From Escherichia coli O157:H7 (GTDB lineage Bacteria; Pseudomonadota; Gammaproteobacteria; Enterobacterales; Enterobacteriaceae): a DNA stretch of 64,000 bases. Where the stretch lies: the NCBI RefSeq assembly GCF_013167455.1, contig NZ_CP038328.1. One strand, given 5' to 3'. Every line of letters starts with the position of its first letter. The stretch's first letter is position 1. This document shows, piece by piece, positions 6,001 through 9,000 of the stretch. Made by a program: the position numbers.

Positions 6001-9000
6001 GTCAATGCAGGGCTGAATCTGCAGGAAAGCAACAAATGGGGTAACAGCAGCCAGTTTAATTTCTGGAGCAGTGGTCCCCTTGTGGATGATTCTGTCAGCC
6101 TGCAGGTACGCGGTAGCACACAACAGCGTCAGGGTTCATCGGTCACATCACTGAGCGATACAGCAGCCACGCGTATTCCTTATCCCACGGAGTCACAGAA
6201 TTATAATCTTGGTGCACGTCTTGACTGGAAGGCGTCGGAGCAGGATGTGCTCTGGTTTGATATGGATACCACCCGGCAGCGTTATGATAACCGGGATGGG
6301 CAACTGGGGAGTCTGACGGGGGGATATGACCGGACCCTGCGCTATGAGCGAAACAAAATTTCAGCTGGCTATGATCATACTTTCACCTTCGGAACATGGA
6401 AATCGTATCTGAACTGGAACGAGACAGAAAATAAAGGTCGTGAGCTTGTACGCAGTGTACTGAAGCGCGACAAATGGGGGCTTGCCGGTCAGCCGCGGGA
6501 GCTTAAGGAATCGAACCTTATCCTGAATTCATTACTGCTTACCCCTCTGGGAGAATCTCATCTGGTTACGGTGGGGGGCGAGTTTCAGAGCTCGTCCATG
6601 AAAGACGGAGTTGTCCTTGCCAGCACAGGTGAAACTTTCCGGCAGAAAAGCTGGTCGGTATTTGCTGAGGATGAGTGGCATCTCACGGATGCACTTGCGC
6701 TGACTGCGGGCAGCCGCTATGAACATCATGAGCAATTCGGGGGACACTTCAGTCCGCGTGCATATCTGGTCTGGGATGTGGCAGATGCCTGGACGCTGAA
6801 AGGCGGTGTGACCACGGGATATAAGGCACCCAGAATGGGGCAGCTACATAAAGGGATTAGTGGTGTGTCCGGGCAGGGAAAAACAAATCTACTTGGTAAC
6901 CCCGACCTGAAGCCGGAAGAGAGCGTCAGTTATGAGGCTGGGGTGTATTACGATAACCCCGCCGGTCTGAATGCCAATGTCACAGGTTTTATGACTGACT
7001 TCTCCAACAAGATTGTCTCTTATTCCATAAATGATAACACCAATAGCTATGTAAACAGCGGAAAGGCCCGGTTGCACGGTGTGGAATTTGCCGGCACATT
7101 GCCGCTGTGGTCAGAGGATGTCACGCTGTCACTGAATTACACCTGGACCCGAAGTGAACAACGTGATGGTGATAACAAAGGTGCGCCGCTGAGTTATACC
7201 CCTGAACACATGGTGAATGCGAAACTGAACTGGCAGATCACCGAAGAGGTGGCATCATGGCTGGGTGCCCGTTATCGCGGGAAAACACCACGTTTCACCC
7301 AGAATTATTCGTCACTGAGCGCTGTACAGAAGAAAGTGTATGATGAGAAAGGAGAATACCTGAAAGCCTGGACGGTGGTGGATGCAGGTCTGTCGTGGAA
7401 GATGACGGATGCCCTGACGCTGAATGCTGCGGTGAATAACCTGCTCAACAAGGATTACAGTGACGTGAGCCTGTACAGTGCCGGTAAGAGTACGCTGTAT
7501 GCCGGTGATTACTTCCAGACGGGATCATCAACAACAGGATATGTGATACCTGAGCGAAATTACTGGATGTCGCTGAACTATCAGTTCTGATAATAACAAA
7601 ACGCTATCACTGACGGTAGAATACGTTGCCACTGCAACTCCTGGCGGAACAGTGGCAACGTATTAGGTTAAGTGCATTTCCGATCCGCTAATGAGATTTC
7701 GTTACCAACAACTAATATCGTCACAGGAAATGCACGGATTATTTTTAACTTATCATTTACATACTTGTCCAGAGTGTAAGCGCACCGTGAAGGACGTGGG
7801 GTAAAAATTAGTTTACAGAGAGAGTGACGTTCCAGGGCAACAACTCTTTCATGCGGTTGGCAGGCCAGGTGTTGATTACACTGATCACGTGGCGTAGCCA
7901 CGTTTCCGGCTCGATTCCGTTAAGTTTTGCAGCTACCGATCAGGCTGTACATCACTGCCGCACTATCGCTCGTCATCTCAAAGTCCTGTCTCGTCAGCAG
8001 GAAGGTATCATTCTCTCCCGCCATTTTTCCAGGGGCCCGGTCAGATAAGTCCCTTTGTCTATCGCTGACTCCTGACTCATAACCCGGTTAGCAGAATGCA
8101 GGGTCACCACCTCGCCACGACCAAATCCAAATAAGTCAATTGCACCTTCTCAATCGCCATTTTGTCAGTAAGCGTACAGCCTGAACTGATGGTATCTTCA
8201 CCATCAATGACAACGGTGATCGCAATTTTACTGACGTTCGCCGGAACACGATCCAGTGCTATCTCAATGCTGGCCTGCTGCGAACCGGTAACGAGCCTGA
8301 CTGCCCCCTCAGGAGAAGACAAATTATTATAAAAGATAAAGTCAGAATCGCCACTGACCTTTCCCTGAGCATTAAGCATGAACAGGCAGGTATCGGGTTC
8401 GCCTTTAAAGCCGGATTTGGCAGGGTACTGAAGATTCAGCCTGATCGTAGATTGCTGAAGGGGTATGTTTTGTCCGGATTGTAAATTCATATTAACTCTC
8501 CTGATTTTTGATTATTATTAATGCGCAGCGTTTATATATGTTCCCTAGGCTTAGTTCTGGACGCTGGATATTCGGTGAGGCGTAAATATGGTATGACACC
8601 ATTTTTCATAACGCTGAAGTTTCTATACCTGTTGAATTTGAATTTTCATTGACCGGGTATCTTATTTTCCAGGGCCCGTTCCTTCATAAGTCGCAAAAGT
8701 AACATATATCCGAAGGGCATGCTGTTGATATCAGACACGGAATACTGGCTTTAACCAGCAACCACAGATAAACCCGGGGCCTGCATAAAAGGTTCATGCC
8801 AGAATTAACATAGCTCTGCTTTCTGCCCCCCCCCTTTCCCATATTCACCCGTTGATAGCGGATCGATACCCAAAAAAAACCCCGGCATTGCCGGGGTCAG
8901 ACTCAGCGTCTTTTAGACATTGACGCCGTGCTGGGAAGCAAGCGCTGACAGACCACCGGCAAAACCCTGGCCAACAGCTTTAAACTTCCACTCAGTACCA

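Follow-up and report, generated by a model that had tools for sequence, protein, structure and literature searches.

A truncated terF reading frame beside an ISEc8 repeat remnant in the tellurite-resistance island of Escherichia coli O157:H7: most likely a non-functional remnant of a deletion

In the tellurite-resistance/adherence island of Escherichia coli O157:H7, the terE gene is followed by a small open reading frame, and the question raised by this locus is whether the frame is a small gene in its own right or what is left of a larger one. The DNA analysed is a 64,000-nt stretch of contig NZ_CP038328.1 (assembly GCF_013167455.1), termed here the window. The genes terZ, terA, terB, terC, terD and terE are on the minus strand, from position 13463 down to 8913, and iha is on the plus strand at positions 5500–7590. 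Further on, the island carries terW, urease genes and an integrase adjoining ycdU. Window positions 7600–9000 are 100% identical to many O157 chromosomes. In the terZABCDEF cluster, which confers resistance to tellurite, phage and colicin, terF comes seventh.

The open reading frame at positions 8104–8490 (minus strand) has an ATG start and a chain length of 128 aa, with a Shine-Dalgarno sequence (AGGAG, positions 8498–8502) 7 nt upstream of the ATG that is invariant in the alignment with IncHI2 plasmids. The original prediction, made from the sequence alone, was that a short TerD-domain frame lacking the last ~60 residues follows terE. The short frame is indeed there. It matches the Pfam family TerD (PF02342) with 73.9 bits and so passes the family cutoff of 25.3, but the match is partial, with residues 1–99 covering profile positions 3–115 of 187. 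The terE product (191 aa, positions 8913–9488, minus strand, RefSeq WP_000301248.1), which is the last intact gene product of the operon, has a complete TerD domain (Pfam positions 1–186 of 187, E = 3e-85), and its TerD neighbour likewise covers the full profile. The Pfam search of the 128-aa frame did not yield a complete TerD domain, whereas full-length TerF matches PF02342 at positions 3–187, and it gave no match to PF10138 (vWA-TerF-like).

Reference TerF is a 413-aa protein formed by a TerD domain (aa positions 1–161) and PF10138, "vWA found in TerF C terminus" (aa positions 212–412, E = 3e-69). It is present on IncHI2, IncFIB and IncHI1B plasmids and in E. coli chromosomes (tblastn against plasmids; Pfam). 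An alignment to reference TerF had been proposed, with references of about 128 aa counting against the view that the frame is shortened; all of the aligned references are 413 aa long. The frame is terF-derived and abnormally short. The loss of about 60 C-terminal residues, however, is correct for the TerD domain only. Compared with the 413-aa TerF, 311 residues are missing, and these include the whole vWA domain. The comparison implied in the original prediction was with the single-domain TerD/TerE proteins, which is the wrong one, as TerF is a TerD+vWA fusion and three quarters of it is gone. Single-domain TerD and TerE (~191 aa; solved TerD structures 2KXT/2KXV, 3IBZ) share the Pfam TerD fold family with the 128-aa frame and, unlike intact TerF, have no fused vWA domain. 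The short frame did not come from a TerD/TerE-type gene; an alignment with 2KXT shows gaps in the TerF domain opposite a TerD loop.

The position of the frame is orthologous to that of full-length terF. From terZ/terA across the spacer and into terF, the window is collinear with IncHI2 plasmids and with the E. coli O80:H26 EC-107 chromosome. In a DNA alignment with two IncHI2 plasmids the homology is collinear from the terE stop codon and comes to an abrupt end after codon 102 of terF. Blast searches show 96.8% identity to an IncHI2 plasmid over 5.3 kb, with the homology ending at window position 8185, and 99.4% identity to EC-107 over 4.3 kb from terA, ending at the same base. EC-107 carries a full-length terF of 413 aa. 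Codons 1–102 of the 413, the N-terminal TerD part, are thus represented in the window by positions 8185–8490 (minus strand) and in the EC-107 locus by positions 4000–4305. The two 102-aa segments are identical (102/102), with one synonymous nt difference in 306; the IncHI2 segment has 96 of 102 identical aa (94%). With a single difference from the nearest relative, no selection signal can be read from dN/dS. Compared with TerF of the terZABCDEF clusters of IncHI2 R478-type plasmids and of O80:H26 (WP_001053347.1), the locus position, terminator, spacer and Shine-Dalgarno sequence are the same and residues 1–102 are 94%–100% identical, but the reference proteins have the complete TerD and PF10138 domains, whereas the window copy keeps codons 1–102 only and adds 26 unrelated codons. 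On these alignments the frame is a truncated derivative of TerF, a predicted pseudogene, and not an intact family member.

The 26 added codons and the stop codon are at positions 8104–8184 (minus strand). They encode SGCTLTDKMAIEKVQLTYLDLVVARW, no part of which aligns with anything in TerF, and the peptide at the junction reads ...DGEDTISSGCTLTDK. This tail crosses two kinds of foreign DNA, a remnant of an insertion sequence repeat and the flank of iha.

The insertion sequence remnant consists of 19 nt at positions 8168–8186 (plus strand), GTAAGCGTACAGCCTGAAC, which match nt 1–19 of the left inverted repeat in intact ISEc8 (IS66 family) without a difference. The homology with every full-length terF stops at position 8185, and the rearrangement breakpoint is at positions 8184–8186. 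In the aligned junction the identity to intact ISEc8 extends through nt 19, and the last two of these nt (AC) are common to terF, which is a 2-nt microhomology at the break. An intact ISEc8 of 2442 bp with tnpA/tnpB/tnpC, annotated by RefSeq as ISEc8 family, is present in the window at positions 41628–44069 and displays perfect 8-bp target duplications, GCGTAATC. The first 17 nt of the scar have one other exact match in the window, at positions 41628–41644, with the inverted partner at position 44069; 0.13 chance matches to this 17-mer are expected in the window. By its sequence, the 19-nt element beside terF is a remnant of the ISEc8 terminal inverted repeat. The cause of the short length, missed in the original prediction, is the rearrangement breakpoint, which the remnant marks and beyond which the tail is read from foreign DNA. 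The intact ISEc8 copy, whose left end matches the scar beside terF, sits within an IS30-family/HTH pseudogene.

The DNA on the other side of the remnant belongs to the iha region. Positions 7700–8167 also adjoin iha in strains that have no ter genes, and in E. coli ATCC 25922 (iha present, ter absent) the similarity ends exactly at position 8167. The segment at 7970–8167 is common to the iha regions of ter-less E. coli and ends exactly at its last base. The segment at 7776–7969 (minus strand) is a right-end fragment of a different IS66-family element, a C-terminal tnpC pseudogene about 97% identical to other E. coli tnpC ends; it has a terminal repeat GTAAGCG... at position 7776 (GTAAGCGCACCGTG...) and is also found in the iha region of ATCC 25922. 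RefSeq shows a frameshifted partial transposase at positions 7808–7958. Closer to iha, 30 nt past its stop codon, there is a perfect 15-nt inverted repeat with a 15-nt spacer at positions 7620–7664 (AATACGTTGCCACTG / CAGTGGCAACGTATT), possibly the iha terminator.

A synthetic query, the iha flank joined to the ISEc8 interior, was used to search genomes. Four E. coli genomes (e.g. cS76a) have an intact ISEc8 joined to the identical nucleotide of the iha flank. Since an intact copy is found at the same nucleotide, the junction in the window would be the scar of a deletion that extended from the ISEc8 interior into terF. A 19-nt stub cannot regrow into a complete element, and the arrangement with intact ISEc8 would thus be the ancestral one. 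The O157 junction is therefore best read as a deletion from within the ISEc8 repeat into terF, and a single deletion is the simplest reading of the order of events. An ancestral arrangement of ISEc8 followed by terF, or an intermediate with both, was not found.

In this proposed process, a deletion would have removed terF beyond codon 102 in the island of O157:H7 and related Shiga-toxin-producing E. coli (STEC). Beside iha, the deletion would have ended 19 nt into the left inverted repeat of an ISEc8 copy; its other end would lie inside terF. The insertion-sequence-linked deletion would have brought the ter genes directly against the region of the iha adhesin. The reading frame now continues across the repeat remnant and the iha flank, where it adds 26 arbitrary codons before it meets a stop codon by chance. 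The resulting stump would be transcribed at most by read-through of the terminator that precedes it.

An ancestral target duplication at the iha-flank ISEc8 of cS76a is uninformative, as the right flank has been rearranged into IS1. An IS66-like element 3′ of terF in EC-107 was rejected as the source of the scar; it is only 80% similar to another IS66-family copy of the window, at positions 24285–24866, and is in the opposite orientation. This IS66-family element, at positions 5399–5889 of the EC-107 locus, is tnpB-truncated and is situated about 150 nt downstream of the full-length terF. IS66-family elements thus seem to have landed repeatedly on the 3′ side of terF.

The distribution of the junction was determined in complete E. 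coli genomes. Among 5426 genomes, terF matches are found in 951, of which 435 are full length. The junction of the window is present in about 500 of the 5426 (about 502), including O157:H7, O145:H28, O111:H8 and others. This points to one old event that was inherited with the island.

The sequence on the other side of the junction is not uniform. In EDL933 a G>C change at window position 8183 (position ~4484 of the EDL933 locus) creates a TGA stop codon directly after codon 102, and the product is 102 aa. The EDL933 locus, EDL933_RS05365, has the same junction, ISEc8 remnant and iha flank as the window, but is annotated by RefSeq as a pseudogene ("TerD family protein, incomplete, missing C-terminus"), whereas the 128-aa form of the window is annotated as a protein. 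The base change at position 8183 thus accounts for the pseudogene label in EDL933 as against a protein in Sakai-type strains. The TGA also shows that the 26-codon tail is not conserved and is unconstrained. Under the name "Protein TerF / TerD family protein", the 128-aa form is found on at least 1000 contigs, as against 147 contigs for the form of 102 aa.

Loss of terF is also known from other islands. STEC of serotype O121:H19 have been described as having no terF at all (PMC9729726). In their tellurite islands terF was destroyed independently, beside insertion sequences, and terZABCDE is intact, as it is in the window; the window differs in that it keeps a 306-nt stump fused to an ISEc8 end.

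The short frame could also be viewed as a genuine short TerF isoform, i.e. a small TerD-family gene transcribed independently from its own promoter in the spacer. This was the proposal in the original prediction, and the terminator between terE and the frame is the observation that led towards it. The hairpin and U-run are real and are found at positions 8870–8898 (minus strand). The stem GACCCCGGC-AAT-GCCGGGGTT (8898–8878) comprises 9 base pairs (7 G-C) closed by a 3-nt loop and is followed by TTTTTT; with the last stem T's included, a T8 run continues down to position 8870. The terminator begins 15 nt past the terE stop codon (8913–8915). A 56-nt stretch with the hairpin has a minimum free energy of -22.1 kcal/mol (z = -3.1 against shuffled sequences). 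The segment thus displays the sequence properties of an intrinsic terminator, a GC-rich hairpin and U-run after a stop codon, and is predicted to terminate terZABCDE. In an Rfam scan of positions 7600–9600 (E ≤ 1) no family reached its gathering score, and sub-threshold matches at 8872–8948 lie on the terE hairpin.

The terminator is not a peculiarity of the short copy. It is identical in IncHI2 plasmids, where full-length terF comes after it. Hairpins with other stem and loop sequences occupy the equivalent position behind terE in a Klebsiella pneumoniae IncFIB plasmid (CP067551.1; AACCCCGGCCTGTCCGGGGTTTTTT) and in a Citrobacter freundii IncHI1B plasmid (CP060660.1; AACCCCGGTGCTGTCACCGGGGTTTTTT). 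In the Klebsiella plasmid the ATG of full-length terF is only ~43 nt after the T-run (locus positions 2930–3001). In the Citrobacter plasmid an extra open reading frame of 216 aa (locus positions 2335–2985) begins ~12 nt after the T-run, and terF is 15 nt past that frame. Since a terminator precedes full-length terF in three plasmid lineages, the predicted terminator is ancestral and not special to the short copy. The Citrobacter 216-aa sequence has no significant Pfam or NCBIfam match; its N-terminus looks hydrophobic by eye.

The spacer between the terminator and the frame (positions 8491–8869, minus strand) is ancestral to the E. coli / IncHI2 ter lineage. Its identity is ~99% to EC-107 and ~87%–88% to IncHI2 plasmids, and the conservation of ~87% over 380 nt with the latter is the second observation in keeping with a short isoform. 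The same spacer and terminator, however, are equally present before the full-length gene. A promoter in 8491–8870 had been considered necessary for expression of the frame, and this is unsupported. A consensus scan of this interval yielded 0 sites with 2.9 expected, and the best score in a PWM scan was 8.1, below the window median of 9.2; by both scans there is no sigma-70-like site above background. The gaps of ~43 nt and ~12 nt in Klebsiella and Citrobacter leave no room for a conventional promoter, and it follows that full-length terF in these lineages is probably expressed by partial read-through. Expression of the stump may likewise be by read-through, or from a non-sigma-70 promoter. Papers on the Klebsiella and Yersinia ter genes yielded nothing on terF transcription, and no paper of relevance was found under the locus tags Z1177/Z1616/ECs1357. 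As both close and distant orthologs at the same position are all 413 aa, and as the homology ends abruptly at an insertion sequence repeat remnant, the short-isoform reading is largely refuted already and is scarcely credible.

The 128-aa frame is most likely, with little doubt remaining, the 5′ stump of terF left by an ISEc8-linked deletion and a non-functional remnant. The structure of the TerD domain is in accordance with this. In an alignment with the solved TerD (2KXT), TerF positions 17–165 correspond to TerD positions 24–191, and the cut is at about residue 125 of the ~191 of TerD. The cut at residue 102 loses the conserved ...GE(V/L)YRH..WK.RA.GQG..GGL... end of the TerD fold. The TerD part has 9 strands in an AF2 model of full-length TerF, and 4 of them come after residue 102; the model, from a 6-row alignment, is of low confidence (pLDDT 51.8) and was used for a rough strand count only. 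The stump is thus without about 40% of the TerD beta-sandwich and without the entire vWA domain. The partial TerD domain and the absence of vWA, together with a strong predicted terE terminator upstream and no recognisable promoter, suggest that in all likelihood the stump has no function.

There are observations that could suggest retention. The open reading frame is uninterrupted, starts at an ATG behind a good Shine-Dalgarno sequence, and is unchanged in ~500 complete genomes. A functional mini-TerD that has acquired a new role may be envisaged, made by read-through or from a cryptic promoter and modulating TerZ/A/D/E assembly, e.g. as a partner or a dominant-negative subunit. The AGGAG and ATG of the intact frame, the Pfam TerD match far over threshold, the presence of the allele in ~500 genomes of several STEC serotypes, and the lack of any nonsynonymous change compared with full-length TerF would all be in agreement with such a role. 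The identity, however, reflects recency (1 nt in 306; 99.4% over the operon): the island and its full-length relative differ by only ~0.6%, decay has had no time to set in, and the conservation is therefore silent on selection. In addition, the C-terminal tail varies by strain and is absent in EDL933, which stops at codon 102; the TerD fold has lost its conserved C-terminal strands, and the frame is behind a strong predicted terminator with no promoter signal. Tellurite resistance does not require terF even in its intact form, as a terW-terZABCDE-deltaF clone has the wild-type MIC of 5 mmol/L (PMC11003894). A functional mini-TerD is thus highly unlikely. It is similarly improbable that a chimeric stump made by read-through uses its half TerD to tune the TerZ/A/D/E complex, or that the vWA loss alters the phage, colicin or stress phenotype of the ter system in O157-type STEC specifically.

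The remnant belongs, in truncated form, to a known family (TerF, PF02342 + PF10138); it is already in the databases and is flagged as a pseudogene in one reference genome. The only new points are the detailed structure of the junction and the assignment of its scar to an ISEc8 repeat. The importance is mostly in annotation and bookkeeping. RefSeq is inconsistent, as it lists a protein for Sakai-type strains but a pseudogene for EDL933. E. coli O157:H7 is described as "terZABCDEF" in papers and PCR typing schemes (e.g. PMC3064760). Contrary to this label, O157-type islands have only the 306-nt terF stump, without the vWA domain, and functional inferences on TerF or vWA drawn from O157 strains would thus be misplaced. 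The junction of the iha flank, 19 nt of ISEc8 and terF codon 102 offers a clean marker of a single event in O157, O145, O111 and other STEC, and could help in following how the island has evolved. As the terminator is conserved and two lineages have no room for a promoter, read-through would normally supply intact terF at a reduced level, which bears on the stoichiometry of the ter operon.

Finally, the spacer has some minor features. Its origin as a decayed form of the Citrobacter 216-aa frame was rejected, as there is no nucleotide similarity. The only small open reading frame of the spacer that recurs in relatives has 36 codons (positions 8492–8602, minus strand), and its TAA is 1 nt before the terF ATG. 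This small frame is present in the window, in the O80:H26 chromosome and in one IncHI2 plasmid; it is frameshifted in another IncHI2 plasmid and has many nonsynonymous changes. It could be a coupling leader or a chance frame. A C9 homopolymer at positions 8827–8835 (G9 on the coding strand) lies within the most indel-rich and least conserved stretch of the spacer alignment.
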